64,000 nt of DNA from Nitrospirota bacterium (GTDB lineage Bacteria; Nitrospirota; UBA9217), in the NCBI GenBank assembly GCA_963754875.1, contig CAVWHO010000020.1:32001-96000 (forward strand), given 5' to 3'. The notes beneath the pieces are model-generated. The model was not told where the DNA came from and searched no databases. It worked only from the letters and a program-made list of their open reading frames with translations. A program made the translations under genes and the position numbers. The stretch's first letter is position 1, and every line of letters starts with the position of its first letter. Positions 2 through 59,527 of the stretch are shown here, one piece after another.

Positions 2-3000
2 TATGGCGACCGGGCCCCCCTTACGGTGCAGCGCGCGATCACGGGCATCAATACAACGCAGCCGGTGGGCAGCAAAGGGTTGGTGACCATTACCATCACC
101 AACAACTCGGGCGGCACGGTCAAGAACATCAGGCTGACGGACCTTCTTCCGCCCGAGTACGTTATTGACCCCACGTACTGGGCAGGCGGGTTTGCCAAAG
201 CCCTGCAGGTGCGGGCCGCTGCCTTTGGCGTCAACACGATTCAACCTGCCTACGGCAGCTATCCCGGAATGATCGATCAGATCACCTGGGCCGATCCAGC
301 GCCGGGTACGTTGACGTCCACCGACCCTGCCGTACCTCTGTCGAATACGCAGCCAATATTCATATTAACCAGCACGACGGCCAACCCGAATTATCCCAAC
401 CAGATCAACATGTTGCGTGAAGGCGACGTCTTGACGGTGACTTTTCCCATCGTTCTTGTCAAATCGTCCTTTTATGACAAAGTCGCGAACCTGGATGTCC
501 GCACCGAGGCCCCGAACAGCGATCCGCCCGGAACCGATCCGGCCAATCAGACAACGTTAACGAACACACTCACGGTTGAGTATGACACCTTCTGCACTAC
601 GCAAGGCCACCAGACCCGTTCCTTCACCGACAACAGACCGGCTTTCCCGGAGGACCTGGATGTCGATATCGTCGGTTCAGAGCTGATCTTCATTCTCACC
701 AATGATCCGACACAGCCGCTGCCCTTGACGGTCGCTGTCACGAACAACGGTGGCCACGATGCGAGCAACAACAACGACAGGAGTCAATACCATACCTATG
801 TTTCTTTCGGGCAGGGCATGGTCGTTTCTTCGGCGCCGGCCGGCTGCACGAGGACAACAAACCCTCCGCCGTTACCTGTCTGGACGCTTCCTTCACCCAT
901 ACCGAACACAGCCGCGATTTATGACTGCACCGGAGGGAGGATAGCCCCCGGCGCGACCGTCAATTACGGCTTTCAGGTCATCAAGAACACCGATCCCAGC
1001 GCGGCCGACGATCTGACGTTCCGCGCGGACACGGTCGGGCAAATCAGGTTATGGGACGGCACGCCGCTGTGGTTCCCGGCGCCGACCCCGCGACCAGACG
1101 GCATCACCGATCGCGCGAACAACTATACGCTCGACGGCATACGCGCGCGCGTCATCGGCTTCAATCTATTGAAGTCCGAGTACGGGACCTGCACGGAGAA
1201 TAATCCGCCGCCCTCGCTGCCCGATCGTCTGGTGCAGATCGGTGAGGACTGCACGTTCCACATCGATACCGGCGGCTGGTTCGGCTTCAAGACCCCGGGT
1301 TTTACCTATATTGCGGTCCAGAAGATTCAGGTCGTCGATCAAGTGCCCGCAGGACAGGGATACCTATCTTCCACGGATCCCTATGCGAACATCGACCCCT
1401 ACGGCAGCACGACCAGCGCCATCAAAAGCATCGGCCTGAACAAGGGGACGAGTCTTGCGCCGCCACCACCCCAGCCCCTGGATGAGGGATGGTTTAACTG
1501 GACGTTCAACCAGGCCGTTCCCGCGGAGCGCATCACCGTCAAGGACGAGTGGTTCCGAGTCAATGTGACAGACCGCATCATGAATGACCCGATCAATGTC
1601 AGCGCGGCACCGAATCAGCACGCCGCGCTCAGCAGCAACGTCCTCAATTCATATTTTCAGGCCGTCTTCTTCAATCCCAACACGAACCAGGAGGAAGTGT
1701 ATGACCTGGGGCCCAACACCGTGGGTTACCCGCACGAGGCGGCGCGAAGGGTCGACCTGACTATCCAGGAGCCAAAGCTGTCGATCGTCAAGGAGGTCTG
1801 TAACGAAGCGCTCTACGGCGTAGGTCCGGCGTGCAGCCACTTCGTGCCGCTGGCCGATGACGGTGATGCCTACGACTCCTACGTCTACCGCCTCACGCTC
1901 ACCAACGAAGCAAGCAGCAACGGCGTCCCGCGCGCACCGGCTTACGATGTCTCCACCACCGACATCCTCGACCCGAGCGATTTGGCCTATGTCGTCCCGT
2001 TCAACAGCGATGGCCTGGACAACGACGGCGACGGGCTGATCGACGGCGCAGACACGGACGGCGAGGGCGCGATCACGACTGACGACGTGGTCAAGAACGG
2101 GGTGCCGGCGACCATCCAGTTTTCGTATACCAACAGCAAACCCTTGCTGCGTATCGATGCGGGAAAGTCCGTCACGCTCTATTACCGCGTCGACTACGAC
2201 GACAGCGCTGCTCCGCTGCAGCAGTTCGTCAACAAGGCGAAGGCGACGTACGACAGCCTCGAGGGGCCGTCCGGTCACCAAAATGCGCCGCAGCGATTGA
2301 ACGGCGACAAGGGCGGCGCACGGGTGTATGAGTCCGCCGAAGCCTCCGCGACGGTCAAGATCATTCCCGTTTTGACGCAGCCGAAAAAAATCGTCGCCAC
2401 GTCCAACACCCCGCTGAGCGGCACCAGCCCGCAGGGGGCGTCGATCGGTGAGGAGATCAAATACGAGTTCACCACCTCGATCCCGGTCGCGCAATTGCGT
2501 AACTTCGTGGTCCGTGATGAATTGCCCGTCGGCATACGGTGCACCGAGGCCCCGGTCGTCAATCTGAGCGCAGCGCCGTATTCCGATGCCGGCTTCGTGC
2601 CCGGCGGGACGATTACGCCGACCTGCACCAACAACGTCGTACAGTGGAACTTCGGCGATCAACAGGTCACGAAGGGGACGACCAACAACCGGTACGACTT
2701 CAAGATTTCGTTCATCGCACGAGTCGAGAACACGACCAACACCAACAGCGGGGGCCTGATTCGCAACGGCGGCAGCGCGACCAACGTGACCGCGAGCTAC
2801 GTCGATCAAGCCGGGCAGCAGGTGGTGCTCACGTACGGCGAGGCGGCGGTGGTCGTGCAGGAGCCGAGGATCACGCTCACCAAGGCGTTCTCAGTTGCAA
2901 GCGGCGATGCCGGCGACATCGTGACCGTGACCGTGACGGCCGCCAACTCGGGCACGGCAACCGCTTACAACCTCCGGGTGCTGGATGACCTCGCGGCTGT

Positions 3001-6000
3001 CAAGGATCTGATCTATGTGGCGGGGAGCACGGGCGGCACTGATCCGCCTGATAGTGTCGATGCGACCACGCTCGGCGCCAATCGCCCGATCTTTCGCTGG
3101 AACCTGTCCGACCCGAAGTACGCGATCGCTCCGGGAGCGGCCCGAAGTTTCACGTTCAAGGTTCGCATCGATACCACGGCACAGCCGCTCGAAGATTTTG
3201 AACAACACCATTCAAGCGAGCTGGCAATCCCTGCCGAGCCAGGCTACGGCGTTGAACAGCACCGGGAAAATAGGCGCGGATGGCGGAGACATGGGAATGC
3301 GCAACGGCGCCTTGCCCAACATCGGCAACGCCATCAACGATTACGAAACGACCGCCAGCGCCTCATTATCGGTGCCTGCCGTCCAGATAACGAAAACGGA
3401 CTTGTCGTTGTCCGTCGTTCCCGCCATCGGCGCGCAGAAGCAGTTCCAGATCGAGTTCCGGCTGCCGGAGGGCACGACCAGGAATCTGGCAATCACCGAC
3501 AACTTGGCCGCGACGGGTCTGAGTTACGTGCTCGCGAACAATGGCAGTTACGACATCACCTACGAATTCGCGGGTATCGCGAGCATCAATGGCCGGACGC
3601 CGGTTGAGGCGTCCTTCCTATCCTTCCCGGCCGACAACACCTCCGGCAACGCGATATGGAACATCGGCACGGTGGTCACTGCCACCGAGGATGACACGGT
3701 CTCCAACACGCTGAATCCGGTCATTCGCATCAAGTATTACGCACGGGCCAATAACGATCTCCAGACCCAGGCAGGCGGTACGCTGCAGAACTCTGTCAGC
3801 GTTACTTTTACGAACGGCGCGACCGGAACGACGCAAACGCTGACCGGCTCCACGTCGCCCGTTACCGTGGTAGAACCGAAACTGACGCTCACCAAGACCG
3901 CAGCCAACATGACGCCGGGCAAACAACCGGGCGATGTGGCCGTGGGGGGCGACATCCTCGAATACCGTGTTACGGCGACCAATGCCGGCAACTCAACGGC
4001 CTTCGACGTCAATGTGAAAGACACGCTGCCGCCCGGGCTCGCGTGGTATTCCGGTTTTGCGCCGACGGCAACGATCAACGGCGTCTCCGTGAGCGGGTTC
4101 GTCCCGACACCCGCCGGTGCGCCGAACGGTCCGCTCATCTGGGGGCAGGGCAACGGCGACGGGAGCCTCGACATCCCCGACGGCCAGACCCTGATACTCA
4201 CGTATCGTGCCACCGTCGTTGTGGCCAATAGCCAGATCGAAAACGGCGTTCTTGCTGACTGGACCTCGCTCGACGGCCCGAGCCCCTATGAAAGAACCGG
4301 TGCGGGCTGCCCGAATGTCACGCCGCCCAATGTCTACTGCGTGGGGCCAGCGTCCGCGACTACGCTCGGCGTGCAACCCGTGCTGGTATTCCAGAAGACC
4401 GTTACGAACGCGACGCCGGGCAAGCAACCGGGCTCGATCGTCACTCCCGGCGATACGCTGCGGTACCAAATTCTGATTAAGAACATCAGCACGGCCCCTG
4501 TCAGCAATTTTTCGATCGTCGACGAGCCGGACAGGCTGAACGCCACCCCGATGTTCGTCCCGGGCACGCTGCAACTCGTCACCGTGCCCTTGGGGGCGAA
4601 TACCTCGAACACCAACCCGACCGGCGGTACCAAGGGGACAGGGCTCATTGACATTCGTAACCTCAGTATCTCGGCCGCGGGCGGGTCGAATGACACGATC
4701 GTCATCGAGTTCGATGTGAAGCTTGCGCCCGTGATCACGAACGGGACGGTCGTGCTGAATCAGGCGCAGTTGATGGTGTCCGGCTTCCTGTTCGGCAACA
4801 GCGACGATCCCAACGTCAACGGCGTCGACAACCCCGCGATACAGGGCGACGAAGATCCGACGCGCACGGTTATATCCTCCGCACCGGCTTTCCGCATCCA
4901 GAAGACGGCGCAGGATATGACGGGAGATCCGGCCGTGCTGATGACGGGGGATACCGTGCGCTACACCATCACGATCAAGAACATCGGCACCGAGAACGCG
5001 ACGGGCGTCACCCTGCGCGATCTGATTCCGGCGAACACGACCTACGTCGCCAACACCACGACGCTGGACGGATCGGCCGTCGCGGACCCCGCACCCGGTG
5101 TTTCGCCGCTGCAAAACGGCATGTTGGTGCACGCACCCGAAGACGCTACCTCGGGCGCCATGCGCGCCGACGCCACCTCGACCTCGAGCAATGTCGCAAC
5201 CATCACGTTCGATGTCGTCGTCGGTCCGAATCTCCTTAACGGCGCGGCCATCTGTAACCAGGGCTTCGTGAGCGGCTCGGGATCGGGCAGCGGCCCCTTT
5301 CCCGAACAGCCGTCCGATAATCCGGCCACGCCGGCGACCAATGATACGACCTGCAAAGTGCTTGGCAACATGCCGCTCGTGTACGCGCAGAAAACCGTGC
5401 AGCTCGCCGTCGACAACGGATCGCCGGGCGTCGTCGATCCGGGCGACGTGCTGCGCTACACCATAACGGTCAGCAACTCGGGGGCGACGCCGGCGACGAA
5501 CGTCGTGCTGACGGATATTGTGCCCCCGAACACGACCTACGTTGCCAACTCCGCAACGCAGAACGGCGCGGCAGTGCCCGATACCGGCGGCTCGCCGCTC
5601 GCCTCCGGTCTTCCCATTAGTTCTTCAAACCTGACGCCGCCGCTGCCGGGAGCCGGCGCCGGCACGTTGTCACCCGGCGCCGCAGCGACCATCACCTTCA
5701 ACGTCCAGGTCAACGCGGGGGTCGCGTCGGGGACGATCATCAGTAACCAGGGCAGTGTTGCCACCAACGAATTGCCTGCGCAGCTCACCGACGCCGACGG
5801 TGATCCATCCAACGGTTATCAGCCGACGCTCGTCGTGGTCGGAAGCGGCCAACAGCTCACAATCACCAAGCAAGTCGCTGTCGTCGGCGGCGGGGCCGCC
5901 GCAGTCGGCGCCGAGCTCGAATACGTGGTGCGCGTAACCAATATCAGCGTCACGGCGGCGACCAACGTAGTGATCACCGATGCCCTGCCCGGCCAACTTT

Positions 6001-8087
6001 CGTATGAGCCGGGATCGGCAGCGCTGAACGGGTCGAGCGCCGGGATCACGGTCGCAGGCCCGGTCATCACCGCGGACTATTCGTCGGTCTACGGCAGCCT
6101 GCCCTCGAACGGTACCGTGGTCCTCCGGTTCCGCGCCCGGATCGTGTCGGGCTCGATCGGCACAACGGTGACCAATACGGCGCAGGTCACGTGGAACACG
6201 CCGAGCCAGAGCGCCTCGGCCAGCGCTTCCGTGGATATCGGCGGTACGCCCGGCAGCGCAATGCTGAACGGCCGTGCGTGGCACGACGCGAACTTCAACA
6301 ATACCTTTGACAACGGTGAAAGGGCGCTTGTGGGCTGGACGGTTCAGGTCTATCGGAACAGCCAGCTGCTGGGGAGCGTGCTGACCGACGGCAGCGGCGC
6401 GTACGGCGTGAGCGGCCTCGCACCCACGACAACGGGCACCGATCTGTACGAAGTCCGGTTCCGCGCGCCCGGTGCAACCACGAGCACGGCGTTGCTCGGC
6501 CTCGCCGACTCGGCGTTCACCAACAGCCTGCAACGGATCTCCGGCATCACGGCTGCTTCGGGCAGCAATCTTCAAAACCTGAATCTGCCGATCGATCCGG
6601 ACGGCGTGGTCTACAACGCGATCCTGCGCACGCCGGTTGCCGGAGGCGCCGTAACCATGGTGCGGGCATCGACGAACAGTGCGCTTCCGGCAAGCTGTTT
6701 CGATGATCCGGCGCAGCAGGACCAGGTGACGCTCGCGCAGGGCTACTACAAGTTCGATCTGAACTTCAGCGACCCCTCCTGTCCATCGGGGGCCGACTAC
6801 GTCATTCGCGTCACACCGCCGGCGAATGGGTACGGCCCCATGCCTTCGCGCATTATTGCGCCCGCGACGAGCGACGCCACCGCGCCGTTTTCGGTCCCGG
6901 GATGCCCCGGCAGCGCCAACGATGCCATTCCGGCGACGGCGTCGTACTGCGAAGCGCAGCCGTCCGAGTTCGCTCCGGCGACGAGCGTCCCTGCGGGTTC
7001 GGTGGGTACGAAGTACTACCTGCACTTCACGCTCAGCAACCCCGCCGAGGGCGACAGCCAGCTCTTCGATAATCACATTCCCGTAGATCCGCCGTTGAAC
7101 ACCGCGGTCGCGATCACGAAAACGGCGTCGCTGCTCAATGTGACGCGCGGACAAATGGTACCGTACACGATCACGGTCAAGAACACGTTGGGTGCGCCGT
7201 TCCCGAACGTGACTATCGTCGACACCTTCCCGCCCGGCTTCAAATACGTCGACGGTTCAGCCCGTTACGACGGCAACCCGCTCGAACCGGTGAAGACCAT
7301 GCGCGACTTACGTTGGGAAAATCTGCAGCTCACCAGTGAGGAGCAGCACGCGATCAGACTACTGCTCGTCCCGGGCGCGGGGGTAAAGGAAGGCAACTAC
7401 GTCAACAACGCCCAGGTAACGACCGGCTTGACGGGCGAAGCCGTGTCCGCCCTGGCGTCGGCGACGGTCCGCATCGTGGCCGACCCAACCTTCGACTGCA
7501 CGGACATCATCGGCAAGGTGTTTGACGATGACAACGCCGACGGCTACCCCGACCGCGGCGAGAAAGGCCTGGGTGGCGTGCGGATCGTGAGTGCGCGCGG
7601 TCTCATTGCGACAACGGACAAATACGGCCGCTTCCACATCACCTGCGCTGCGGTCCCCGATGAGGATCGGGGCAGCAACTTCATCCTGAAGCTCGATGAC
7701 CGCACCCTGCCGACGGGGTACCGCATCACCACCGAGAACCCGCTTGTGCGACGCCTGACCCGCGGCAAGGCGATCAAATACAACTTCGGCGCGACGCTGC
7801 ATCGCGTCGTGAGCCTGGACATTGCGGACGGCGTGTTCGAGCCCGGGTCCACGGAGATGCGGCCGCAATGGAAGCCGAGAATCGAGATGTTGTTGAACGA
7901 ATTGCACAAGGCGCCGGCTGTACTCCGTATCTCGTACCTCGCGGATCTGGAGGATCCGAGCGTTGTGAAGGCTCGCACGGAGGCGGTCAAGCGTGAAATC
8001 GAGAAGCGATGGAAGCAGGGAAGCTACGAATTGACGATCGAAACGGAGATCTTCTGGCGGCGGGGCGGGCCTCCTACAAAAAAGTGA
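2..8087 (+). CDS. Giant DUF11/isopeptide-pilin-like repeat surface protein with SdrD-B-like domains; 5'-truncated by window edge; ORFs 26..3607 and 3015..8087 joined across a +1 frameshift near 3192
   Basis: The frame is open from base 2. Repeated 'K....GD.L.Y.ITV.N.G...A..V.L.D.LP' DUF11 units. 'GRAWHDANFNNTFDNGERALVG' and 'IGKVFDDDNADGYPDRGEKGLGGV' are SdrD-B-like motifs. Removing one A in CTCGAAGATTTTG (~3192) gives ...QPLEILNNTIQASW and fuses the two ORFs. Confidence 0.85.
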
Positions 8088-8143
8088 ACTGCGGGCAATA
8101 ACGTGTCGCCGTCAAGATGCCTCATTAGGGGAAATTAAGGGGA

Positions 8144-13288: not shown

Positions 13289-13302
13289 ATGCTCATTATC
13301 TT

Positions 13303-13380
13303 TGCCACGTATGAACACGGATGGCCGCGGATAAAATCACTTTATCCATTCCTCCGCGTACTCGTGTCCTCCGTGGCTAA
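13303..13380. repeat. Imperfect inverted-repeat intergenic element (GCCACG...CACGGAT / ATCC...CGTGTCCTCCGTGGC)
   Basis: Self-complementary ends between the OmpA gene and the next ORF. Confidence 0.45.
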
Positions 13381-13407
13381 TAGGTGTTCGACGAACAGGA
13401 GGCGGCC

Positions 13408-13923
13408 ATGCTCAATATTTTAGGAAGATTCATTCTATCCGTTGCCCTGCTGATGCTGAGCTTCCCTGCCTATGCGGAAGAAGTCTCCAGGGAACAGATC
13501 AAGGGGCTGGATGAACAGGTACAGGAAATCAAGACCGATGCCCTGAGCATTGCGGCGGAACTGAACCAGCTTGAAGAGAAGCTGCTGTATCCGTCCAATA
13601 CGCAGGTCGCGGTGTTCCTATCGCTGGTCAAGGGCGAAACCTTTCGTCTCGACTCTGTCGAGATCCGGTTGGACGGCAAGCCGGTTGCCTATCATCTTTA
13701 CACCTTCAAGGAACTCGAAGCCCTGCAGAAGGGGGGGGTGCAGCGCATCTACACCGGCAATGTCCGGTCCGGTGAGCATGATCTCCAGGTTGTTGTCATC
13801 GGCAAAACCAGGGGAGGCTCCGACCTGCAAAAATCGGAGAGCTTCAAGGTCAACAAGGCCGTGGGCCCCAAGATCGTGGAACTATCTCTGGCCGCCCAAA
13901 GCATTACCCTGAATGATAGGTAG
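13408..13923 (+). CDS. Exported hypothetical protein (signal peptide, coiled coil, small beta domain), first gene of the TPR operon
   Basis: AGGAGG RBS at 13397-13402 precedes ATG 13408; signal peptide ending AYA; heptad pattern. Confidence 0.75.
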   Translation: MLNILGRFILSVALLMLSFPAYAEEVSREQIKGLDEQVQEIKTDALSIAAELNQLEEKLLYPSNTQVAVFLSLVKGETFRLDSVEIRLDGKPVAYHLYTFKELEALQKGGVQRIYTGNVRSGEHDLQVVVIGKTRGGSDLQKSESFKVNKAVGPKIVELSLAAQSITLNDR

Positions 13924-13927
13924 ACCA

Positions 13928-15817
13928 ATGAACAGGCTGCTTGTTTTATTGACAATTCTGATATTCTCTGCGTCTTCGGCATCGGCCGCTCCGTCCGCTC
14001 CGAAAGAACTGAAGGATCTCTATTTCGGGGAGGCCCTGTACGACGCATTCCAGGGGGACTGGTTCGACGCCATCGCCAGGCTCGACACCGAGCTTGCGCA
14101 GCACTACCGGGTCGATGAACCGGAACGCGACACCCTTCACTACCACGTCAACCAGGCGGAGTTTGACGTGGGTGATTTCGAATTGGCATACCGGATGCAC
14201 CAGCGTGCCGGGCACGCCATCAAGGCGGTGATCGAGGGCAATGTCGAGGAGACCGTGCGCAACGAGGCCATTTTCCGTCTGGCCCGGATGTACTTCCGGA
14301 AAGACCAGCCGGAAAACGCATTGCATGCCGTCGAGCGCATCCACGGCGCCGTTCCCGCGAAGGTCCGCGTCGATCTCGCTTTCTTGCGCGCGAATATCGC
14401 CATGGCCAACAACCGCAACGCCGAGGCCGTCCGCATTCTGAGAGACCTGCAAAAAGAGAAGAGCCTGGAAGGGTTCAGCTCCTACAACCTGGGGATCGCG
14501 CTGCTCCGGAACGGCAAGGAGAAGAACGGCCGGGAGTATCTCGATCGGACCGGCCGGATCGAGAGCGACAATCCGGCAACGCTGGCGATCAGGGACAAAG
14601 CGAACCTGGTGCTCGGCGACAAGCTCATGAGCGAGAAAAGTTTCACCACCGCCAAGGAGGTGCTCGACAGGGTGCGCCTGAGCGGACCGTTCTCCAACCG
14701 CGCCCTGCTCGGTTCGGGATGGGCCGACGCCTCCCGCGAACGGTTCGAACGCGCCCTGGTGCCGTGGACCATCCTGTCCGAACGCGCGGTCACGGACCCG
14801 GCGGTGCAGGAAGCCATGCTCGCCGTGCCCTATGCCTACGGGAAGCTCGGCGTGTTCAGCAAGGCGGCGCTGATGTACGGCCGGGCGCTGGAGGCGTTCG
14901 GCAAGGAGATCGACAAGCTCGGCTCCTCGATCTCGAGCATCCGCGAAGGCAAATTTCTCAACGCCCTGGTGCGGGAAGAGCTGAAGCAGGACCCCGACTG
15001 GGTGGTCAAGCTGCGCGAGCTGCCGGGAACGCCCGAGACGTTCTATCTGCTCGACTTGATGGCGTCCCATGATTTCCAGGAATCGCTCAAAAATTACCTC
15101 GACCTCGAGGAGCTGCGCAAGAAACTGGAGGTCTGGTCGGATGACCTGGCCGCCTTCGAGGACTTGATCGGTCAGCGCCGGGCCTATTACCAGCCGCTGC
15201 TGCCCGCGATCGACCGGGAATTCAGACGGCTCGATTCGCTGATGCGGTTGCGGCTGGAGCAGCGGGACCGGATCGAACAACGGCTGCAGGCCATGCTGGT
15301 GGCGCCGAGGCCGGACTACCTGGCGACGGCGCAGGAGCGGATTTTCGGGGAGCACCTTGCACGGTTGGAGAAGGCCATGGCGCGCGGAGGCACGTCCGTA
15401 CACGGCGAAGTTGAGGCCCGTATCAAACGCCTGCGGGGAGTTCTGGACTGGAAGATCTATACGGAATACGACCAGCGTCTTACCTCGGCGTACAGACATC
15501 TTCGGGAACTGAACAACGTCATCGACGCGCTGCACCGGCAATATGCCTCCTTTGTCCGTACCCGCCAGGCGGCGACGCAGAGCTATGAAGGGTACGACGA
15601 GGTGATCCGCACCCAGCGGGCCCGGATCACTGTTGCCCGGGAGAGCGTGCGGGACCTGATGGCCCGTCAGGGGCACATGCTCGAAGTCATGGCCGTGAAT
15701 GAACTCACGAAGCGGCGCGATCGCCTCGAAGAGTTCCAGATCAAGGCGCGCTTCGCCATGGCGGACAGTTACGATCGCGCCATGAAGGACCAACTCCGGA
15801 AGAGGGACGAGCGATGA
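13928..15817 (+). CDS. Periplasmic TPR/coiled-coil protein (GltC-like by gene order)
   Basis: Signal peptide (..ASA), TPR-like helices, C-terminal coiled coil; ATGA overlap with the next gene. Confidence 0.75.
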   Translation: MNRLLVLLTILIFSASSASAAPSAPKELKDLYFGEALYDAFQGDWFDAIARLDTELAQHYRVDEPERDTLHYHVNQAEFDVGDFELAYRMHQRAGHAIKAVIEGNVEETVRNEAIFRLARMYFRKDQPENALHAVERIHGAVPAKVRVDLAFLRANIAMANNRNAEAVRILRDLQKEKSLEGFSSYNLGIALLRNGKEKNGREYLDRTGRIESDNPATLAIRDKANLVLGDKLMSEKSFTTAKEVLDRVRLSGPFSNRALLGSGWADASRERFERALVPWTILSERAVTDPAVQEAMLAVPYAYGKLGVFSKAALMYGRALEAFGKEIDKLGSSISSIREGKFLNALVREELKQDPDWVVKLRELPGTPETFYLLDLMASHDFQESLKNYLDLEELRKKLEVWSDDLAAFEDLIGQRRAYYQPLLPAIDREFRRLDSLMRLRLEQRDRIEQRLQAMLVAPRPDYLATAQERIFGEHLARLEKAMARGGTSVHGEVEARIKRLRGVLDWKIYTEYDQRLTSAYRHLRELNNVIDALHRQYASFVRTRQAATQSYEGYDEVIRTQRARITVARESVRDLMARQGHMLEVMAVNELTKRRDRLEEFQIKARFAMADSYDRAMKDQLRKRDER

Positions 15818-18800
15818 GGACGATGACTTGTCTTCGCTGGAGCGCGCTCGCGCTGTTGCCGCTTCTGGCCGCCTGTCAGTCGATCGGCAGCAGGGACACG
15901 ATTGCCTCGCTGCGGAACAGGCACATCGAAATCAAGGAAGAGAAGATCGAAGGCGGACTCGAGAAAGCCATGGAGGGTTACCAACGCTTTCTCGAGGAAA
16001 CTCCGGAATCGGCCCTGAAGCCGGAGGCCATTCGACGCCTGGCGGACCTCAAGATCGAGAGGGAATACGGGTATATCGGAGGCGGAGAAGAGCGCCCCCG
16101 GACGGCCCCGAAACTGCCCGCCCCGGCGCCTCGGCCTGTTGTTGCGCCGCCAACCGTTGCATCGGCCCCGACGCGGTCCGGCAGTGAGTCCGACGCCGAT
16201 TTCGAGAAAAGGACCGCCCTGAGCAAGCCGGTTACGCATACGGCAGCGAAGGAGGGCATCGCCTTGCCGGGCGCCGAGGACCTGGAACGGGCGGGAGCGC
16301 GCGAGGCCATCGCGCTGTACCAGAAGCTTCTTAAGCAGTACCCGCTGTACGAACACAACGACGAGGTGCTGTATCAGATGTCCCGTGCCTACGAGGAACA
16401 GGGGCAGGTCGAGGAGGCCATGCAGGTCATGGACCGGATGGTGCGGGAGTACCCGAAGTCCCGCTACATGGATGAAGTGCAGTTCCGGCGCGCCGAATAC
16501 TTTTTCACCCGCAGGCGTTACCTGGATGCCGAGGATGCCTACAGCAGCATCGTGACCATGGGCGCTTCTTCTTCCTATTATCAGCTCGCGCTGTACAAGC
16601 TGGGCTGGACGTTCTACAAGCAGGAACTCTACGACGACGCCCTGGATCGGTTCGTCGCCCTGCTGGATTACAAGGTGTCGACGGGCTATGACTTCGCCCA
16701 GACCGCGGACGAGCCGGAACGCAAGCGCATGGAGGACACCTTCCGCGTCGTCAGCCTGAGCTTTTCAAACACCGGCGGCGCCAATTCCGTGGTCGAGTAC
16801 TTCACCCGGCACGGCAAGCGCGGCTACGAGGACCGCGTCTACAGCAACCTCGGCGAATTCTACTTCGACAAGCGCCGTTACGCCGACGCCGCGGCGACCT
16901 ACAACGCCTATGTCAGCCGCAATCCGTTCGAGAAGGTATCGCCGCAATTCGCCATGCGGGTGATCGAGATCCAGGTTGCCGGGGGGTTCCCCAGCCTGGT
17001 CATCGACGCGAAAAAGCAATTTGCTGCCACGTACGGACTCAAGGCCGAATACTGGGGGCATTTCGATCCGGCCGCCCGTCCGGAAGTCCTGGCCTGGCTC
17101 AAAACGAACCTCACAGATCTGGCAAAGCATTATCACGCGCTTTACCAGAGCCCGCAGCAGGTGAAGGAAAAGAAGACGAACTTCGAAGAAGCGCTGCACT
17201 GGTACCAGGAATTCCTGACGTCCTTCCCGAAGGACCCTTCGTCGCCGGCCATCAATTATCTGCTGGCGGACCTGTTGCTGGAAAACCGCTCCTTCGATCT
17301 GGCGGCCACGGAATACGAAAAGACCGCCTATGCATATCCGCGCCACGAAAAGTCGTCGAAGGCCGGCTACGCGGCAATTTACGCCTGGCGCCAGCAGCTG
17401 GCCGGAGCCGCAGCCGGGGCAAAAGATCAGGTGAGACGGGAGGTCGTTCGCAGCTCGCTGAAGTTTGCCGACACCTATCCGGAGCACGAGAAGGCGGCGA
17501 TCGTCCTGGGTGCGGCCGCAGACGATCTGTACGACATGCGGGATTATGAGCAGGCGCTGGCGACCGCGCAAAAACTCAACACGGTTTTCCCCAACGCCGA
17601 CAAGGAGGTCAAGCGCGGGGCTTGGGACGTCATTGCCCATTCCTCCTTCGAACTCCATCGCTACAGCGAGGCCGAAACCGCGTACGTGAAGCTCCTGGAT
17701 TTCGTTCCCGAAGGCGACAAGGAACGCAGCGCCCTGGTGGACAACCTCGCGGTCTCGATTTACAAGCAGGGCGAGGAGGCGAATGCCCGCAAGGATTACC
17801 GGGCCGCGGCCGACCATTTTCTCCGCGTAGGGGTCCTCGCGCCGACCTCCAAAGTCTGGCCGAACGCGGAATATGACGCCGCTGCGGCCCTGATCCGGCT
17901 CAAGGACTGGAGTAAAGCGGCCGTCGTGCTGACCGGGTTCCGCGACAAATTCCCCGGCCACAAGCTGCAGCCCGAGGTGACCAAGAAGATCGCCTATGTC
18001 TATAAGGAAGACGGCCAGCTGTCGCAGGCCGCCGATGAGTATGAACGCATAGAAACAGAATCCCACGACGACGCAGTCAGGCGGGAGGCCCTGCTTATTG
18101 CCGCCGATCTGCACGAACAGGTCGGCAACCTCGTCCGCGCGATCGGGGTGTACCGCCGCTATGTGGGTTACTTCCCCCATCCGGTGGAACCCAACCTGGA
18201 AACGTGCAATAAAATCGCGGATGCCCTGAAGAAGAAAAACGATCATGACAGCTATCTCGCCGAGCTGAGACACATGGTGTCCATCGATGCGGGCGCGGGG
18301 GCCGAGCGTACGCCGCGGACCCGGTATCTTGCCGGGAACGCCGCGCTGGTGCTGGCCGAGCAAACCTTCGACCAGTTCGCCGAGGTCAAACTGGTCAAGC
18401 CGTTCAAGGCCAACCTGGGCAGGAAAAAAGAGCTGATGGAAAAAGCGACCAGGAAATTCACCAAACTCCTGGATTATGAAGTCGGCGAGGTTACGGCGGG
18501 GGCGACCTTTTATCTCGCCGAGATCTACGCCAACTTCAGCAAAGCGCTGCTGAAATCCGAACGTCCGGAGGGCTTGAGGCCCGCGGAGAAGGAGCAGTAC
18601 GACCTGGCCATAGAAGAGCAGGCCTATCCCTTCGAGGACAAAGCCATCGCAGTGCATAAAAAGAATCTTGAACTGATTACCGTGGGCATCTACAACGAGT
18701 GGATCGACAAGAGCCTGCAGAAACTGGCCAGGTTCGTACCTGCCCGCTATGACAAGCCGGAAGAGGAAAGCGCCGTGATCTCCTCGCCGGACACCTACGT

Positions 18801-19017
18801 GTTCGCGATCGACCGTCCGGCGCCGCCCGCGAAGGCGCCCGACAAGGCCGCAGCGGCCGCGGAACCGGAGCAGGCTGCGAAGCCCTCTGAGGCCAAAGAA
18901 GCAGTGAAGGCGGACGAACCGAAGCAGGCTGCGAAGCCGTCTGAAGCCAAAAAAGCAGCGCCAGGAGCGGGCGACAGCGGCGACAAGGGCATCCCGCCTG
19001 CCGCAACGGGGGAATAA
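15814..19017 (+). CDS. Large TPR lipoprotein (GltD/AgmU-like)
   Basis: Lipobox LAAC; many TPR units; C-terminal 'YDLAIEEQAYPFEDKAIAVHKKN' segment; Pro/Ala/Lys-rich tail. Confidence 0.8.
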   Translation: MRTMTCLRWSALALLPLLAACQSIGSRDTIASLRNRHIEIKEEKIEGGLEKAMEGYQRFLEETPESALKPEAIRRLADLKIEREYGYIGGGEERPRTAPKLPAPAPRPVVAPPTVASAPTRSGSESDADFEKRTALSKPVTHTAAKEGIALPGAEDLERAGAREAIALYQKLLKQYPLYEHNDEVLYQMSRAYEEQGQVEEAMQVMDRMVREYPKSRYMDEVQFRRAEYFFTRRRYLDAEDAYSSIVTMGASSSYYQLALYKLGWTFYKQELYDDALDRFVALLDYKVSTGYDFAQTADEPERKRMEDTFRVVSLSFSNTGGANSVVEYFTRHGKRGYEDRVYSNLGEFYFDKRRYADAAATYNAYVSRNPFEKVSPQFAMRVIEIQVAGGFPSLVIDAKKQFAATYGLKAEYWGHFDPAARPEVLAWLKTNLTDLAKHYHALYQSPQQVKEKKTNFEEALHWYQEFLTSFPKDPSSPAINYLLADLLLENRSFDLAATEYEKTAYAYPRHEKSSKAGYAAIYAWRQQLAGAAAGAKDQVRREVVRSSLKFADTYPEHEKAAIVLGAAADDLYDMRDYEQALATAQKLNTVFPNADKEVKRGAWDVIAHSSFELHRYSEAETAYVKLLDFVPEGDKERSALVDNLAVSIYKQGEEANARKDYRAAADHFLRVGVLAPTSKVWPNAEYDAAAALIRLKDWSKAAVVLTGFRDKFPGHKLQPEVTKKIAYVYKEDGQLSQAADEYERIETESHDDAVRREALLIAADLHEQVGNLVRAIGVYRRYVGYFPHPVEPNLETCNKIADALKKKNDHDSYLAELRHMVSIDAGAGAERTPRTRYLAGNAALVLAEQTFDQFAEVKLVKPFKANLGRKKELMEKATRKFTKLLDYEVGEVTAGATFYLAEIYANFSKALLKSERPEGLRPAEKEQYDLAIEEQAYPFEDKAIAVHKKNLELITVGIYNEWIDKSLQKLARFVPARYDKPEEESAVISSPDTYVFAIDRPAPPAKAPDKAAAAAEPEQAAKPSEAKEAVKADEPKQAAKPSEAKKAAPGAGDSGDKGIPPAATGE
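18862..18960 (+). repeat. 54-bp-period in-frame duplication (EP.QAAKPSEAK.A) in the tail of the TPR lipoprotein
   Basis: gaaccg..gcaggctgcgaagcc.tctga.gccaaa starts at both 18862 and 18916. Confidence 0.8.
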
Positions 19018-19019
19018 AC

Positions 19020-19760
19020 ATGGAGGCGAACGGGATAAGGAACCGGGAGATGCAGACAAAGAATGCAGAGCCGTCAAAGCAATCGAACTTCCGAAGACGG
19101 GCCGGCCAATCGGCCCTGATGATCGTGCTCGCGGTTTTATCGGGGTGCGCTACCGGCGGCATGGTCAAACCGCAGCCCGGTGCAGACCGGGAAGTATCCG
19201 TGGCCTGGCTCGCAGACGGCAGGCAAGGGTTCGTCATCCGGGAAAACCCGGGTCTCGATGCCGAGTCGCGCGCCGAATTCGAGCGAGCCGTCGCCCTGAT
19301 GAACGACGGCAAGAACGACGAGGCCATCGAACTTCTGACAAAGGTGATCGGCCGCTCACCGGGAGTCACGGCGCCGTATATCGATCTTGCGGAGGCCTAT
19401 ATTCGGATCAACAAGCCGGGGCCGGCGGAGCAGGACCTCAAAACCGCCCTGGGACTGGTCCCCGAGCACCCGGTGGCCAGTAATGAATACGGCTTGCTGC
19501 TTCGCAAGAGCGGCCGTTTCAAGGAGGCACGGGAGATCTATGAGAAGGCGATCGCGAGCTTTCCCGGACTATCTTCCTGATCCGCAGAAATCTCGGGATC
19601 CTCTGCGATCTCTATCTCAATGACCCGGCATGCGCTCTCAAACAATTCGAGATCTACAGCGAGGAGATGCCCGCGGACGCGCAGGTCAAAATCTGGATTG
19701 CCGAGCTGCATATGCGGCGGCTGCAAGCGTTCAAAGGAAACTCCAAGGAGGAGGATCGTA
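19020..19760 (+). CDS. TPR lipoprotein (GltE/AglT-like), frameshifted near 19560-19580; 3' end uncertain
   Basis: Lipobox LSGC; TPRs; continues in another frame as RRNLGILCDLYLNDPACALKQFEIYSEEMPADAQVKIWIAEL. Confidence 0.7.
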
Positions 19761-20141
19761 TAAGGTTTCGAACGAAATCTATTGACTCTGGCTGTGATCT
19801 GTTTCTGGCGCTCGCCGCGTGCACTGTTGGTCAGGATTGCCGGGGCCGAAGGAGGACGAATCGAAAACCACAGTTCGGACGTGTCAGATGCCGGACGATC
19901 AGCACGGTGCGGAAGGCATAAGGCTCGACGGACAAGGCACCGGCCGCCAAAGAACTTTCGGGCATGTCCATCGTCGGCAACGATGAAGCCCCCAAATCCC
20001 TGTATATCGTGCCCTGGAAAAAGCTCTGAAGTCGGTGCGGAGACAGGTTTGAACATGATGTTGACCGAACGTGCGGTGCCGGTGGATCGAGATGTGTTTA
20101 TGCGGCAATTGGACTTTTACGAGATCAGCACCAAAAAATAA
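19760..20141 (+). CDS. Small protein (GltF-like), frameshifted; start uncertain
   Basis: Removing one A from the A5 run at 20018-20022 gives KELSGMSIVGNDEAPKSLYIVPWKSSEVGAETGLNMMLTERAVPVDRDVFMRQLDFYEISTKK*. Confidence 0.55.
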
Positions 20142-20178
20142 CTTCATTATCTCGTTACTGAAAAAGGAGGAACCAAAG

Positions 20179-20833
20179 ATGGGATTCTCCAATACAATAA
20201 TACAGGTTTTTCCAGATGGGCGGGTTCTTCATGTTCCCTATTCTGCTCACGCTGGCGGTCGGTCTCGCCATTGCGTTTGAACGCTGGGTCCACTTGAACC
20301 GCGTCCGGGACGCAAACCAAAAGATGTGGGACGAGGTGCATCCGGCGCTGGCTAAGGGAGAGTTCGATAAGGCCCGGGAAATGGCCAACAAGGACAAATC
20401 CAGCATGGCGCAGATGCTGGGGATGGGATTGGCGCGCCAGGGGGCGGTCAGGCGGCGGGAAGACATAGAAATCGCCATGGAAGAGAGCATGATGGAGATC
20501 ATTCCTCAATTGGAAAAGCGCACGCCGTACCTGGCGCTGTTCTCGAATATCGCCACCCTGTTCGGGCTGCTCGGCACCATCATGGGTCTTATCCAGGCCT
20601 TCGCCGCGGTCGCCACGGCGAGCCCCGCCGAAAAGGCCGCCCTGCTCGCGGCCAGCATTTCGGAGGCCATGAACTGCACCGCCTTCGGTCTGATGTCCGC
20701 GATCCCGCTTCTCCTGCTCCATGCCCGCCTGACAACGACCACGGGCCAGATCGTGAACAGCCTGGAGATGGCATCGGTAAAGGCGCTCAATACGATCTCC
20801 ACTTTTACCAAGCACCAATTTGACAGGAGCTGA
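20179..20833 (+). CDS. MotA/TolQ/ExbB proton channel subunit (AglR-like); +1 frameshift near 20205
   Basis: RBS AAGGAGG at 20164; 'GGFFMFPIL', 'ATLFGLLGTIMGLIQAF', 'ISEAMNCTAFGL'. Confidence 0.9.
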
Positions 20834-20835
20834 TC

Positions 20836-21348
20836 ATGGCCAGACGATATCGTTACAAAAGGAGAAAGGAAGAATCGCTCGATACGGATATCATGCACGC
20901 TCCTGAACCTGACGCCGATGATGGATATTCTGACCGTTCTGGTGGTCTTTCTGCTCATCACTGCCGTCTTTACGAGTATTACGGTCATGGAATTGAGCGT
21001 CCCGACCAGCGCCGGCGAAGCCGGTTCGCGCAAGCCGAATTTCGCCATCGAGGTGATCGTCCGCAAGGCAGGACTGGAAATCGCCAACGGGTCGTCCGTG
21101 GAGGCCGCGATTCCGAAAAAGGACGGCCAGTACGATATCGAGCAGCTGTCCAAACTGCTCGTTGCGCCTGAAAGACACAATATCCGGAGAAGGAAGACGC
21201 GACGATCCTGATGGAGCCGAAGATCGAATACGACTATCTGATCCAGGTCATGGATGCGGTCCGCAGCGCCGACGTGCGGGCGGAAGGGAGCAAAGAGATC
21301 AGGAAAATCGTTCTCTTTCCGAAGATATCCATAGGAGACGCGCCATGA
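20836..21348 (+). CDS. ExbD/TolR family subunit 1 (AglQ-like), frameshifts near 20900 and 21165-21185
   Basis: 'LNLTPMMDILTVLVVFLL' TM segment with the conserved Asp; C-terminal 'YDYLIQVMDAVR...LFPKISIGDAP*'. Confidence 0.8.
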
Positions 21349-21848
21349 GAGACAGCAGACGTATGAAACGCATGGAGCGTAACAACAGGAAAGGCGATGT
21401 ACAGGCCTCGGTCTGAACCTGATACCGATGATGGATGTTCTTTCCGTGCTGGTGTTCTTTCTGCTTTTTCACTCATTCAACGGCGACCATGCCGGAACGC
21501 GCAGATCACGCTGCCCGATTCCGTCGTCGAGACCAAGCCGCGGGAAACCGTGGCGATCGTGGTCACCCCCGAAACGGTAATGGTCCAGGGCGAAGCCGTG
21601 GTCAGCACCGCCAACCTTTTCGATGACCGCATCGGACATCGTGTCATGAAGTAACAGAGCGGCTGGAACAGCTTCAACGCGCTTATCGATACGGCGCCAA
21701 CAGGGCCGACGGAAAGCAGGGAAATCACGCTCCTTGCCGATAAAACGATTCCGTTCAAGGTGCTTAAAAAAATAATGTCGACCTGCACGGCTTCTGGATA
21801 CGGAAGGATTTCCCTCGCCGTCATCCAGAAGGCCGAACGAAAAGATAG
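21345..21848 (+). CDS. ExbD/TolR family subunit 2 (AglS-like), several frameshifts; end approximate
   Basis: ATGA overlap; 'LNLIPMMDVLSVLVFFLL'; 'ADKTIPFKVLKKIMSTCTASGYGRISLAVIQK'. Confidence 0.75.
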
Positions 21849-21858
21849 CGGGGATGCT

Positions 21859-23235
21859 GTGAATACATCCATTGTTAGAACAGGAATTGGCGCAGCTGAA
21901 CGCGCAGATCGAGCAAACTCCGGCGAAAGCAAGGAGTGCTCGAAGGCGAGATGCGCGCCGTCGAGGCAGAGCTGGAAACGTTTTCCGCCGACACGGCAGC
22001 GGTTCGATGCCTTGCGGGACGTCTGCACCGCCCTCGACAAACTGGAGCGAACTGAAAGCGGATGAACTCTTTTGGGAAGGCATTGCGGAGGCCCAGCATG
22101 CCGCCGGACACCTGGAACAGGCGAGGAGACGGCTCGCCCGCTTCGAGGGGGAGATACGCGGAATCCTGGAAAAACAGGCAGCTCTCAAGGAGCAGATCAA
22201 CCGGAGCCTGCGATGAACTGAACTTCCTGAACGAAGAGATACGCGATGCGTACGCACGTGAGGAACGGCGCCAGGAGGAGTACGTCGTCGAGCGGGAGAT
22301 TTCGCCCGTTCCTGACCACGTCATGGTCATGCCGTGGTCCAGGGACGCGGAGAGCGAACAACGCTTCCGCCGGGCACTGCTGGTCGCTCTGTCATTCTGC
22401 CTCTTCTTCAGCGTGCTGGTCCGCCTTTGGATACTGCCCGCGCCGGTCCGCCCGGCCGTGGCCGTGGTTCCGGAACGCCTGGTCTCTATGCTGAGAAGAG
22501 AGCGGCCCAGGCCCGAGCCGCAGCGGCCCAAGGAAGAAAAGAAGCCGGACCAGGAAAAGGCGAAAGCGAAGGAAGATCGGCCCAAACCGACCGCCGCGGA
22601 AACGCAGGCCGCGCGTAAAAAAGCGGAGAGCACGGGGGTCCTCGCCTTCAAGGACGCCTTTAAAGATCTGATGAACGAAACACCCGTTGCGCAGCTCGGC
22701 GCCGAGGCGCGCCTGAGCAGGCAGTCGGCCGAGGCGGCGGGCCAGGCCCGGTCCAACCGGTCGATCATCGCCATGGAGTCAACGGGCGGCACCAACGGCA
22801 GCATCGCCAACGCGGCAGTCAGCCGCAACGTCGGCAGGGGCAGCGGCAATCGTCTCGGGGGTGTGGGCTTTACCAGGGTGGAAAGCAAGGTTGCGGGGCT
22901 GACGGAGCGGGCGAGACCGCTCAGTTCCGGACCCGGACCTGCCCGGACCGACGAAGAGATCCAGATCGTCTTCGACCGGTACAAGGCGACGCTCTACCGG
23001 ATCTACAATACCGAATTACGCAAGGACCCGACCCTGCGCGGCAAGATCATACTGCGCATCACCATCGAGCCGGACGGCGAAGTCTCCGCATGTACGGTGC
23101 AGTCGAACGATCTGGCTTCGCCGGAGTTGGTGGCGAAGATTGTGGAGCGAGTCAAGAAGTTCAACTTCGGACCGAAGGAGAAGGTTTCCAGGATCACCAT
23201 TCTGTATCCCGATCGATTTCCTGCCCGGAGGCTAG
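21859..23235 (+). CDS. Coiled coil, TM helix, charged linker and TonB-C/AgmX-PglI-type C-terminal domain protein (GltG-like); frameshifted
   Basis: C-terminal 'RTDEEIQIVFDRYKATLYRIYNTELRKDPTLRGKIILRITIEPDGEV...FNFG'. Removing one C near 23210 gives the end TILYPIDFLPGG*. Confidence 0.75.
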
Positions 23236-23416
23236 TGCCTGAGGCCGGAGACTGGAGCCGGTAGATTACGCTCAAATCACCTTCTGCAGGCAGGAGAAAA
23301 AACTGAGGATACTCGGAGAGGGGTGATCTGGAATAAGACCAAGTGAAGGACGACAGTATTCCTAAGAGTAGTAATACGATGCATTGCATGCATCGAAATC
23401 CATGGGAGGAATCGCT

Positions 23417-23974
23417 ATGAACAAGATGAACAGGAAGAGAGTATGGCAGTTAATGATTGTACTAGGTATTGGGATGCTCGCTTTATGGGGGTGTCCAAAG
23501 AAGGCCGAGGTTTCAGCTGTACCGGAAACACAAAGGGAAGAGGCGCCGGCTGTAGTGGCGGCTCAACCCGAGCAGAAGACGGAACCAGCGAAGGCCGAAG
23601 CAATAGAAACCAAGGAACAGGCAGCCGCTGCCCCGGTCAAGGGGCTGCAGTCCGTGTATTTCGATTTCGATCAATCTTCTATCCGTGGTGATGCGAGCGA
23701 GGCCCTGAAGGCGAATGCGGAATGGCTTAAAGCCCATCCGCAGTCTAACATCAAGATCGAGGGAAATTGCGACGAACGAGGGACAAAAGAATATAACCAG
23801 GCTCTCGGACAGCGGCGTGCGGCAAACGCCAAAAAATACCTTGCCAATTTGGGCATTTCCGAGCGTCGTATTTCGCTTGTCAGCTACGGAAAAGAAAAAC
23901 CGGGTTGTACCGAAAGTACAGAAAGCTGCTGGCAGATGAACAGAAGAGATGAATTTATCGTTATGTCCGAATAA
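23417..23974 (+). CDS. pal: Peptidoglycan-associated lipoprotein
   Basis: Lipobox LWGC; 'VYFDFDQS', 'IEGNCDERGTKEYNQALGQRRA', 'SYGKEKP', 'NRR'. Confidence 0.92.
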   Translation: MNKMNRKRVWQLMIVLGIGMLALWGCPKKAEVSAVPETQREEAPAVVAAQPEQKTEPAKAEAIETKEQAAAAPVKGLQSVYFDFDQSSIRGDASEALKANAEWLKAHPQSNIKIEGNCDERGTKEYNQALGQRRAANAKKYLANLGISERRISLVSYGKEKPGCTESTESCWQMNRRDEFIVMSE

Positions 23975-24015: not shown

Positions 24016-24152
24016 ATCATCGATTCATAAGTAGGAACATGTCGTATTCGCTCACTACGCTTACTCGGGGATTCAAGATACACCCGTCATCTGAGTGAGA
24101 AAGTTGAGCGCGCAGAGAAACAGTATAATAGCTGTTTATATAGTAATGCCAG

Positions 24153-24195
24153 GGTGCCGAGGGTTGCCATTCCCTCGGCACCTGCTTCTTTTATT
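24153..24195 (+). terminator. Intrinsic terminator
   Basis: Stem GGTGCCGAGGG...CCCTCGGCACC followed by TGCTTCTTTTATT. Confidence 0.6.
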
Positions 24196-57200: not shown

Positions 57201-57886
57201 TCCTCACGAGCCCGATGTGGACAGGCATCACGAACGAAGGCAGGGCCTATGCGTCCTTCTGTCTCAACGTCGAACGGCTCGTGCCGTGGCGCACGCTCAC
57301 GGGACGTCAGCATTTCTACGTAGACCATCAGGGATACATCGACTTCGGAGAAAACCTCCCGGCGTTCAAATCGAAGATCGGACTTCAGGACACGCGTGAT
57401 CTCTTGAAAAACGCTCCATCGGACAAGGCCCTCGTCCTCAACTGCATCACGCCCCACGGGAAATGGCACATCCACAGCACCTATTCCGATAACCTGATCA
57501 TGCTCACGCTTTCACGCGGCGTGGAGCCCTTCTGGTTGAACCTCGAGGATGCGAAAAAGATTGGAGTAAAGGACAACGATTGGATAGAGGTGTACAACGA
57601 CAACGGCGTGATCGTGACCCGCGCGGCAGTGAGTGTCCGCATCCCCCGGGGAGTCGGGATCTTTTACCATGCACCGGAGCGGACCGTCTCGTTCCCCAAG
57701 TCGCCCACAAGAAACAACCGGCGCGGAGGCGGGACGAACAGCATAACACGCATCCGGCTCAAGCCGTCGCTTATGGTCGGCGCATACGCGCAGCTGTCTT
57801 TTGCCTTCAATGCCTGGGGCCCTCCGGCAGGGGACCGGGACACGTACACGATCGTGCGCAAGCTGGAAGGGAAACCGGTTTTTTAG
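54283..57886 (+). CDS. narG: Respiratory nitrate reductase/nitrite oxidoreductase alpha subunit; frameshifts near 54312, 55247-55320 and 56827
   Basis: '[14 protein letters not shown]', 'EPRGCQRG', 'SFYDWYAD', 'ESADWYN', '[11 protein letters not shown]', '[12 protein letters not shown]'; no Tat signal. Confidence 0.92.
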
Positions 57887-57918
57887 CGAATCCTAAAATA
57901 GGTTCAGATGACAACAAA

Positions 57919-57993
57919 CGCACCCTAAAGGGTGCGGCTACAAAAAGAAATATCAACATGCTTCGTTTTGGTAGCCGCAGGCTTCAGCCTGCG
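57919..57993. repeat. Pair of inverted GTAG-type REP hairpins between narG and narH
   Basis: CGCACCC-taaa-GGGTGCG-GCTAC ... GTAGC-CGCAGGC-ttca-GCCTGCG. Confidence 0.75.
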
Positions 57994-58034
57994 AGAATAG
58001 CTTACAAGTCAGTGAGGGTTTGAAGGAGTTTCTC

Positions 58035-59524: not shown

Positions 59525-59527
59525 CTC

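Follow-up and report, generated by a model that had tools for sequence, protein, structure and literature searches.

An Agl-Glt core gene cluster is linked, in one clade, to a giant DUF11 protein and an undescribed outer-membrane barrel family

In Myxococcus, the Agl-Glt and Agl-Nfs machines combine one MotA-like and two ExbD-like subunits with a GltG-like TonB-C arm and tetratricopeptide repeat (TPR) scaffolds. AglR binds GltG and the coupling of the two drives surface transport, and the aglQ mutation D28N has been cited for the motor (PMC3858216); the TonB-C domains of GltG and GltJ are modelled as acting on outer-membrane barrels to expose the adhesin CglB (bioRxiv 2020.07.22.216333). A 'core complex' of gltC, gltD, gltE, gltG, aglR, aglQ, aglS and one extra gene was described in non-gliding bacteria by Luciano 2011, with Gura_3070-3077 and GM21_0438-0445 as its Geobacter representatives, and its function outside myxobacteria was called unknown then (PMC3169522) and again in 2020, when secretion was suggested (bioRxiv 2020.07.22.216333). 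Here we analyse such a core in a stretch of 64,000 nucleotides from a Nitrospirota bacterium (GenBank assembly GCA_963754875.1, contig CAVWHO010000020.1, positions 32,001 to 96,000; hereafter the window), where it stands directly 3' of genes for a giant DUF11 protein and an outer-membrane barrel protein. The core is already known; its tie to the giant and to an undescribed barrel family appears to be new, and this family is the most surprising part of what is a real, conserved system.

The genes downstream of the barrel gene are the same genes in the same order as the Luciano 2011 core, and their sizes agree with the rows for Gura and GM21 in Table S3 of that study (629/626, 1108/1090, 240/272, the extra gene, 211, 166, 166/165 and 484/505 amino acids (aa); PMC3169522). 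The GltC-like protein was 61-70% identical to its Geomonas/Geobacter orthologues. The motor comprises one MotA/TolQ-like and two distinct ExbD/TolR-like subunits, and the channel residues, which include a transmembrane Asp of the AglQ- and AglS-like subunits that we take to be the channel Asp, were kept despite frame breaks in these genes. The GltG-like protein scored 60.5 bits against the AgmX/PglI model NF033768 (cut-off 40), the only such domain above cut-off in the genome, and matched the GltG model NF033760 with E=5e-8, below the model's own cut-off. Its transmembrane helix was located at residues 168-186 in an intact relative, and its N-terminal segment was found in 47 of the 51 loci of the core clade that is linked to the giant and the barrel and in 0/13 loci of the other clade. 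The Myxococcus GltC model NF033756 did not match the GltC-like gene and the GltE model NF033758 gave generic TPR matches only, so that the Glt names rest on gene order, size and the Geobacter bridge, because these models do not single out the genes.

An earlier note, made from the letters of the window alone, had proposed the Agl-Glt identity and had named beforehand a grouping of the motor genes with ordinary Tol-Pal or TonB-ExbBD systems as the observation that would speak against it. No such grouping was seen: the MotA-like protein scored 71 bits against a TolQ cut-off of 221 and 47 bits against an ExbB cut-off of 206, far under both, and the TolR score in an intact relative was 43 (cut-off 127); the motor subunits fell far short of the ExbD cut-off as well. 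Tol-Pal and TonB-ExbBD share with the window system the channel superfamily, a TonB-C-type arm and, here, an adjacent pal, but differ from it in these scores, in its two ExbD-like genes and TPR scaffold, and in that the genome has separate tolQ-like and exbB-like loci; there are three other MotA/TolQ/ExbB loci in all, and a tolQ-like one holds a TonB_2-domain gene. With order and sizes as in Geobacter, the AgmX/PglI domain and the low Tol/Ton scores, the proposed identity was borne out, and by sequence comparison the downstream genes are assigned to an Agl-Glt core, not to an ordinary Tol-Pal or TonB-ExbBD system. All nine core genes were present in 56 of the 80 loci found with the GltC-like protein, in the order of the window in 54 of those 56. 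The ninth gene, encoding a 171-aa exported protein, lay directly 5' of the GltC-like gene in 74/75 loci; it had no Pfam or NCBIfam match and its Atlas clusters are unnamed or auto-labelled AraC. This gene, the giant and the barrel are unmentioned in the available part of Luciano 2011 (PMC3169522); in the present data a single core clade is the one to which they are bound. The motif GNDEAPKSLYIVPW of the small protein between the GltE- and AglR-like genes was read directly at about 19977-20020. A supposed likeness of this protein (GNDEAP) to GltF/CglF found no NCBIfam support among 40 members searched.

The barrel protein of 1714 aa has its OmpA-like peptidoglycan-binding domains at about aa 95-520 and its barrel at about aa 808-1714. 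The GxTD/LSxxRA motifs are retained in two of these three OmpA domains. An AlphaFold model of the barrel from a 67-sequence alignment reached a predicted local distance difference test score (pLDDT) of 85 and a predicted template modelling score (pTM) of 0.78; an earlier model from 30 close sequences had a pLDDT of 59, and fold searches with that model were uninformative. The wall strands were counted from the secondary-structure list of the model without using coordinates, which gave 40 strands with consistently alternating turns and loops, and alignments to porins reach the first and last strands, which fits a closed barrel. The protein is thus predicted to form a 40-stranded outer-membrane barrel. 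No close solved structure was found with Foldseek (TM-scores normalised by the model ≤0.26), and a literature search for a 40-stranded outer-membrane beta-barrel, which mostly covered papers outside subscription journals, gave no match. There is no Pfam family for these barrels and no TonB-receptor family match was obtained in 30 members. The family is large and unnamed: clustering at 50% identity leaves 4324 clusters (E up to 0.001). It has many members of 2000-6900 aa, and members mislabelled 'MotB' or 'TonB-dependent receptor'.

A single gene, interrupted by one frame break near 3192, encodes the giant of about 3080 aa, which is 79-84% identical to intact relatives of 3068 and 3090 aa. Its signal peptide and tandem DUF11/DUF7507/DUF7619/SdrD_B domains agree with the domain definition of a CLIPPER-stalk fibrillar adhesin, in which DUF11 is the isopeptide-stabilised stalk domain (PMC12617251). 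Across carriers the N-terminal parts of the giants are swapped and the C-terminal 600-1400 aa are conserved; known adhesive domains were not found in six giant N-terminal regions. A reading by eye of the last 118 aa as OmpA-like was unsupported (hhalign E=0.53). Giant and barrel form one unit: their genes were neighbours in the genomes and plasmid records that we looked at, and in three Nitrospirota genomes (G112, G120, G156) they are one ORF (open reading frame) of 4425-4646 aa. Since the fused forms run the tail of the giant straight into the OmpA domains, its C-terminal end is probably periplasmic, and display would therefore need the chain to cross the outer membrane, most simply via the barrel.

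Linkage of this pair to the core was strong within one clade. Among the loci found with the GltC-like protein, the barrel gene lay directly upstream in 38 of the 44 that had a GltC identity of at least 60% and enough upstream DNA. Searching the 37 genomes whose locus lacked the barrel, we found a close barrel in 21 of the 23 with a GltC identity of at least 45%; a close barrel is one with at least 54% identity, a cut that was chosen after the results had been seen and that coincides with a supported tree branch. Close barrels were within 1 kilobase (kb) of a GltC-like gene in 9/9 cases in 121 genomes of the window's phylum, beside the core in 2/2 cases in 201 genomes of the phylum of genome G158, and within 20-27 kb of a core marker in 5/6 cases in 301 genomes of the class of genome G020. 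Pooled over the three samples, 16/17 close barrels were beside the core, or 13/14 without the three centre genomes. The order giant-barrel-core was found in Nitrospirota and Desulfobacterota, and the order core-giant-barrel in gammaproteobacteria and a spirochaete (on one contig in G001, G005, G006, G007, G008, G020 and G031).

In FastTree trees, whose supports are Shimodaira-Hasegawa-like (SH-like) only, the linked barrels formed one branch (SH-like 100); these trees held 26 and 16 chosen linked rows, among which locus L101 was labelled linked by genome co-occurrence only. The linked cores likewise grouped on a single branch, inside which G141 and G138 made up one nested unlinked pair; beyond Geobacter, this core clade takes in Nitrospirota and one bin each with the title Spirochaetales or Verrucomicrobiota. 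Identities of barrel and GltC covaried (Mantel r=0.78, 37 loci, 0/2000 permutations as high), a value that shared ancestry inflates. Given that kin are not independent, the linkage counts reflect one ancient linkage that persisted while the genes were transferred and their order changed. The claim that the adhesin/barrel pair is linked to the core in other genomes therefore stood within this clade, which covers several phyla and shows two gene orders, and did not extend further, with the pair usually coreless and most cores elsewhere pairless; the link between pair and core is clade-specific. No report tying the core to a giant DUF11 protein and barrel was found in a literature search that mostly covered papers outside subscription journals and that took in the Luciano 2011 supplements in part, and the available parts of PMC8238504 and bioRxiv 2024.09.26.615229 held nothing bearing on the linkage.

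The features of the block are collected in Table 1. By ORF reading and Pfam and NCBIfam profiles, all genes that the earlier note had named were present on the + strand in the order it gave, and with gaps of 56, 119, 4, -4 and 2 bases from the giant to the GltE-like gene the description as a co-oriented, tightly spaced block held. The gene list itself needed amending, given that the giant starts about 1.15 kb 5' of base 1 of the window, that the 3' genes are frame-broken and that Pal is incidental. About 20 single-base frame breaks lie at about 19550-23240, nearly all of them insertions relative to three intact relatives, and the breaks among the 12 of 38 indels that were listed are absent from related public contigs. 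The breaks at 19.5-23.3 kb are likely consensus (read) errors rather than signs of pseudogenisation; tests of these 3' genes were run on intact relatives. The source genome is 90% complete, and the closest related loci bear Nitrospirota in their titles.

Pal was rejected as a part of the machine and as a member of the block, given that it follows the GltG-like gene in only 3/55 related loci with enough downstream DNA, that the GC content of pal is 0.51 against 0.60, and that two paralogues occur elsewhere in the genome. A terminator-like hairpin was found near pal at 24152-24183, and promoter-like sites near pal were at chance level.

Table 1. Genes of the block, with positions in the window.
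Feature	Position	Strand	Length (aa)	Remarks
Giant exported DUF11 (CLIPPER)/isopeptide Ig-repeat protein	2..8087	+	~3080	Pfam/NCBIfam; SdrD_B-like domain near C-terminus
Outer-membrane protein	8144-13288	+	1714	Signal peptide, three OmpA-like domains, Ig-like linker, predicted 40-stranded beta-barrel
Exported protein without family assignment	13408..13923	+	171	Constant ninth core member
GltC-like periplasmic TPR protein	13928..15817	+	629	Agrees in size and position with Gura_3077 (629 aa) and GM21_0438 (626 aa)
GltD-like TPR lipoprotein (LAAC)	15814..19017	+	1067	Gura_3076 is 1108 aa, GM21_0439 is 1090 aa
GltE-like TPR lipoprotein (LSGC)	19020..19735, end approximate	+		Frame-broken
Small exported protein with GNDEAPKSLYIVPW motif	19757..20141, start approximate	+		Frame-broken; position of Luciano's 'additional gene'
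AglR-like MotA/TolQ/ExbB proton-channel subunit	20179..20833	+		PF01618 E=9e-25; break near 5' end
AglQ-like ExbD/TolR subunit	20836..21348	+		Frame-broken; transmembrane Asp kept
AglS-like second ExbD/TolR subunit	21345..21862	+		Frame-broken; transmembrane Asp kept
GltG-like single-pass protein	21859..23235	+		Frame-broken; ~165-aa N-terminal cytoplasmic coiled-coil-like segment, transmembrane helix, flexible linker, TonB-C-type AgmX/PglI domain
Ordinary Pal lipoprotein	23417..23974	+		TIGR02802 138 bits, above cut-off; not a conserved part of the system

The 5' regions of 20 core-linked and 4 unlinked loci were scanned. Riboswitches assigned by class to c-di-GMP-I (cyclic di-GMP) were found within 1.5 kb 5' of the giant in 7 of the former and 0/4 of the latter. 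The carriers were Geobacteraceae, Desulfatitalea, Desulforhopalus, a gammaproteobacterium and a spirochaete bin. Rfam gave no match in the window or 5' of the giant of the source genome; in this genome and its near relatives AraC-type response regulators stand 5' of the giant instead of riboswitches, and one or two such regulators also precede the giant in G112, G120, G147 and G156.

Our preferred reading, with a probability of roughly 0.45, is that the pair displays a wall-anchored adhesin and that the motor likely contributes an energised step, for example its deployment, retraction or release, with gene linkage as the ground for coupling the two. The adhesin part of this reading draws on the DUF11 stalk domains, on the swapped N-terminal and conserved C-terminal parts of the giants and on the riboswitches; the presence of other outer-membrane partners beside other core clades also speaks for the reading. 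Starting from the observed gene content, linkage and giant-barrel fusions and from the predicted barrel fold, the mechanism may be pictured as follows. Giant and barrel protein would cross the inner membrane by Sec, and the barrel would be tied to the cell wall by its own OmpA domains. The stalk and variable tip of the giant would exit through the wide barrel, its conserved C-terminal part staying periplasmic. The MotA/ExbD/ExbD channel would use proton flow to move the GltG-like TonB-C arm, and this arm would act on the barrel module via the TPR scaffold. A complex prediction for the periplasmic region of the barrel with the GltG C-domain of locus L014 scored 0.00 twice, which is evidence neither way.

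Several observations weigh against this reading. The pair stood without an adjacent core in 4/4 plasmid records inspected, and no GltC-like match was obtained in 11/12 and 13/13 of the genomes with only a distant barrel in the window's phylum and the phylum of G158, respectively. G623 and G466, sister lineages of the linked clade, carry long-OmpA barrels and giants with no adjacent core; they also led us to reject the idea that a triple OmpA marks the motor-linked form. Conversely, the 300 genomes sampled from the class of G020 included 62 with the core marker, which was linked to this barrel in only 5, most gammaproteobacterial cores have other partners, and G141 and G138, both fragmented assemblies, have a linked-clade core with no adjacent pair. 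In G629 a close barrel lies at a contig end and the only core is of another clade. The window's own motor genes are frame-broken, and we infer, rather than observe, the surface exposure of the giant and its passage through the barrel. Coreless sisters and pairless cores imply that the pair predates its link to the motor and is more widespread than this link, and that the core is a modular transducer with varied outer-membrane partners. As most family members have no core, basic export is probably motor-independent, and coreless pairs, pairless cores and the position of Pal outside the unit together indicate that the motor is probably not an obligatory export engine. The earlier proposal that the motor exports, assembles or moves the giant through the barrel is accordingly favoured by the core identity and the linkage and weakened, as regards export, by the wide occurrence of coreless pairs.

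The adhesin reading can be compared with described machines. Action on an outer-membrane barrel and an adhesin, as in the Myxococcus machines, is a likeness that would apply to the window system by analogy. The Myxococcus adhesin is the small vWA lipoprotein CglB, whereas the partners here would be a single, very large barrel anchored to the wall and an Ig-repeat fibre of 3000 aa. No GltA/B-type barrel (TIGR04565, OMP_myx_plus; we take this model to represent GltA/B) scored above cut-off in the 90% complete genome. The type IX secretion system (T9SS) has a proton-driven motor. Its translocon SprA/Sov (PDB 6h3i) is a very large single-chain barrel like the predicted one, and gave the longest structural alignment with our model (635 residues, Z 12.7, root-mean-square deviation 12.7), with a Z tied with unrelated porins. 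SprA differs in that no sequence similarity to it was found and in that the window protein is under half its length and has OmpA anchors; a supposed likeness of an inserted domain of the barrel to SprA likewise had no sequence support. Autotransporters and two-partner (type V) systems have, as here, a dedicated passenger and barrel, split or fused, with the barrel C-terminal. Type V barrels have 12-16 strands, whereas 40 are predicted here, with periplasmic OmpA domains between passenger and barrel, and no POTRA or autotransporter family matched above chance. A bolder version of the adhesin reading, which we hold to be tentative and rather doubtful, is an undescribed export route in which a 40-stranded single-chain barrel, wider than any solved, threads and holds a cross-linked fibre of 3000-5000 aa, and in which the Agl-Glt core of one clade pays out, reels in or sheds this fibre. 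If true, the system would amount to a retractable adhesin powered by protons, and would serve as a living model for how gliding motor and adhesin were first coupled. For the question of what the core does, the linked clade offers a concrete cargo, a channel and cultured hosts (Geomonas oryzae and Geomonas edaphica), and any answer would hold for one clade only, because the core changes its outer-membrane partners between clades.

Alternatively, the modules could be co-regulated and co-transferred for surface life and work separately, without being mechanically coupled. Both modules are often met alone, and a single linkage event with joint transfer could account for both clades; the linkage has, on the other hand, outlasted a gene-order change, several phylum jumps and giant-barrel fusion, and the GltG-like protein of the linked clade has its own N-terminal segment, and we therefore regard this as improbable. 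An import function, in which the core gates the large barrel in a Ton-like manner for uptake of bulky material caught by the giant, would suit the TonB-C-type domain of the GltG-like protein, the TonB-dependent receptor genes that follow two distant-clade cores, and the annotation of some barrels as 'TonB-dependent receptor', one of them followed by exbB-exbD-tonB. The absence of a TonB-receptor family match in the 30 barrel members, the failure of the model to superpose on 22-strand receptors (TM ≤0.26) and the cyclic-dinucleotide riboswitches, which suit attachment more than uptake, make import unlikely. We also give little credence to an envelope-structural role, with the giant as a periplasmic or surface lattice, the OmpA domains tying membrane to wall and the motor positioning the tethers in a Tol-Pal-like way. 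This would agree with the three OmpA domains (motifs in two), with the adjacent Pal in the window and with the continuity of the giant with periplasmic domains in the fused forms, but Pal is unconserved (3/55), a separate tolQ-like locus with a TonB_2-domain gene exists in the genome, and the swapped tips and patchy occurrence are more in keeping with an accessory function at the surface. A simple surface-motility machine, moving the adhesin along the cell or pulling the cell on it, is very unlikely in spite of the adhesin-like cargo and of kinship with AglRQS-Glt, where AglR-GltG coupling drives surface transport in Myxococcus (PMC3858216), as wall binding through its domains would impede sideways movement of the barrel, no GltA/B-type barrel is above cut-off in the genome and Luciano 2011 holds the core alone unlikely to drive motility (PMC3169522), and the earlier suggestion of such a system found no support at this locus.

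Related arrangements were seen elsewhere. Other core clades adjoin ApbE, TlpA-like redoxins, OMP_myx_plus barrels or TonB-dependent receptors. One such gammaproteobacterial clade (L073:5076-9346, L147, L149, L065-L078) has ApbE, a TlpA-like redoxin, OMP_myx_plus barrels and a gene of 375-405 aa that is DUF3570-like by size and context only; the ApbE/redoxin-associated cores suggest a redox-linked use of the same motor. In G031 a second core-like cluster (L135:15281-19899) immediately adjoins the adhesin-linked one. The source genome itself (G000) has, at about 235,000-243,000 of contig C8 (L121), another, distant member of the barrel family, which is frame-broken, has one OmpA domain and an SdrD-like segment, and has no core nearby. 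A widespread distant subfamily of about 2000 aa (L085:12713-19435, L089, L091, L092, L120) fuses SdrD, OmpA, Ig and barrel; next come genes for a FecR-like protein, a histidine kinase and a response regulator, and the arrangement may be a surface-sensing system on the same barrel.

In Geobacteraceae, tandem c-di-GMP-I-GGC variant riboswitches in 2-3 copies lie ahead of the giant (L127:12298-13341, L128:5926-6249, L129:5260-5536). Outside the window, 5' of the giant, there are two tandem near-duplicate AraC-type response regulators (L001:6679-8435) and, on the - strand, three genes that resemble by eye a vWA, PP2C-like phosphatase and kinase trio (L001:2610-5867), for which no Pfam match was obtained at E 1e-6. 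Further 3' in the window, 25398-34061 encodes a 2887-aa GH94/glucoamylase-domain protein, presumably of the cyclic beta-1,2-glucan synthase type. At 54335-59571 a molybdopterin oxidoreductase is spread over three ORFs and followed by a nitrate-reductase beta-like subunit; the splitting of the former probably again reflects frame errors in the assembly.

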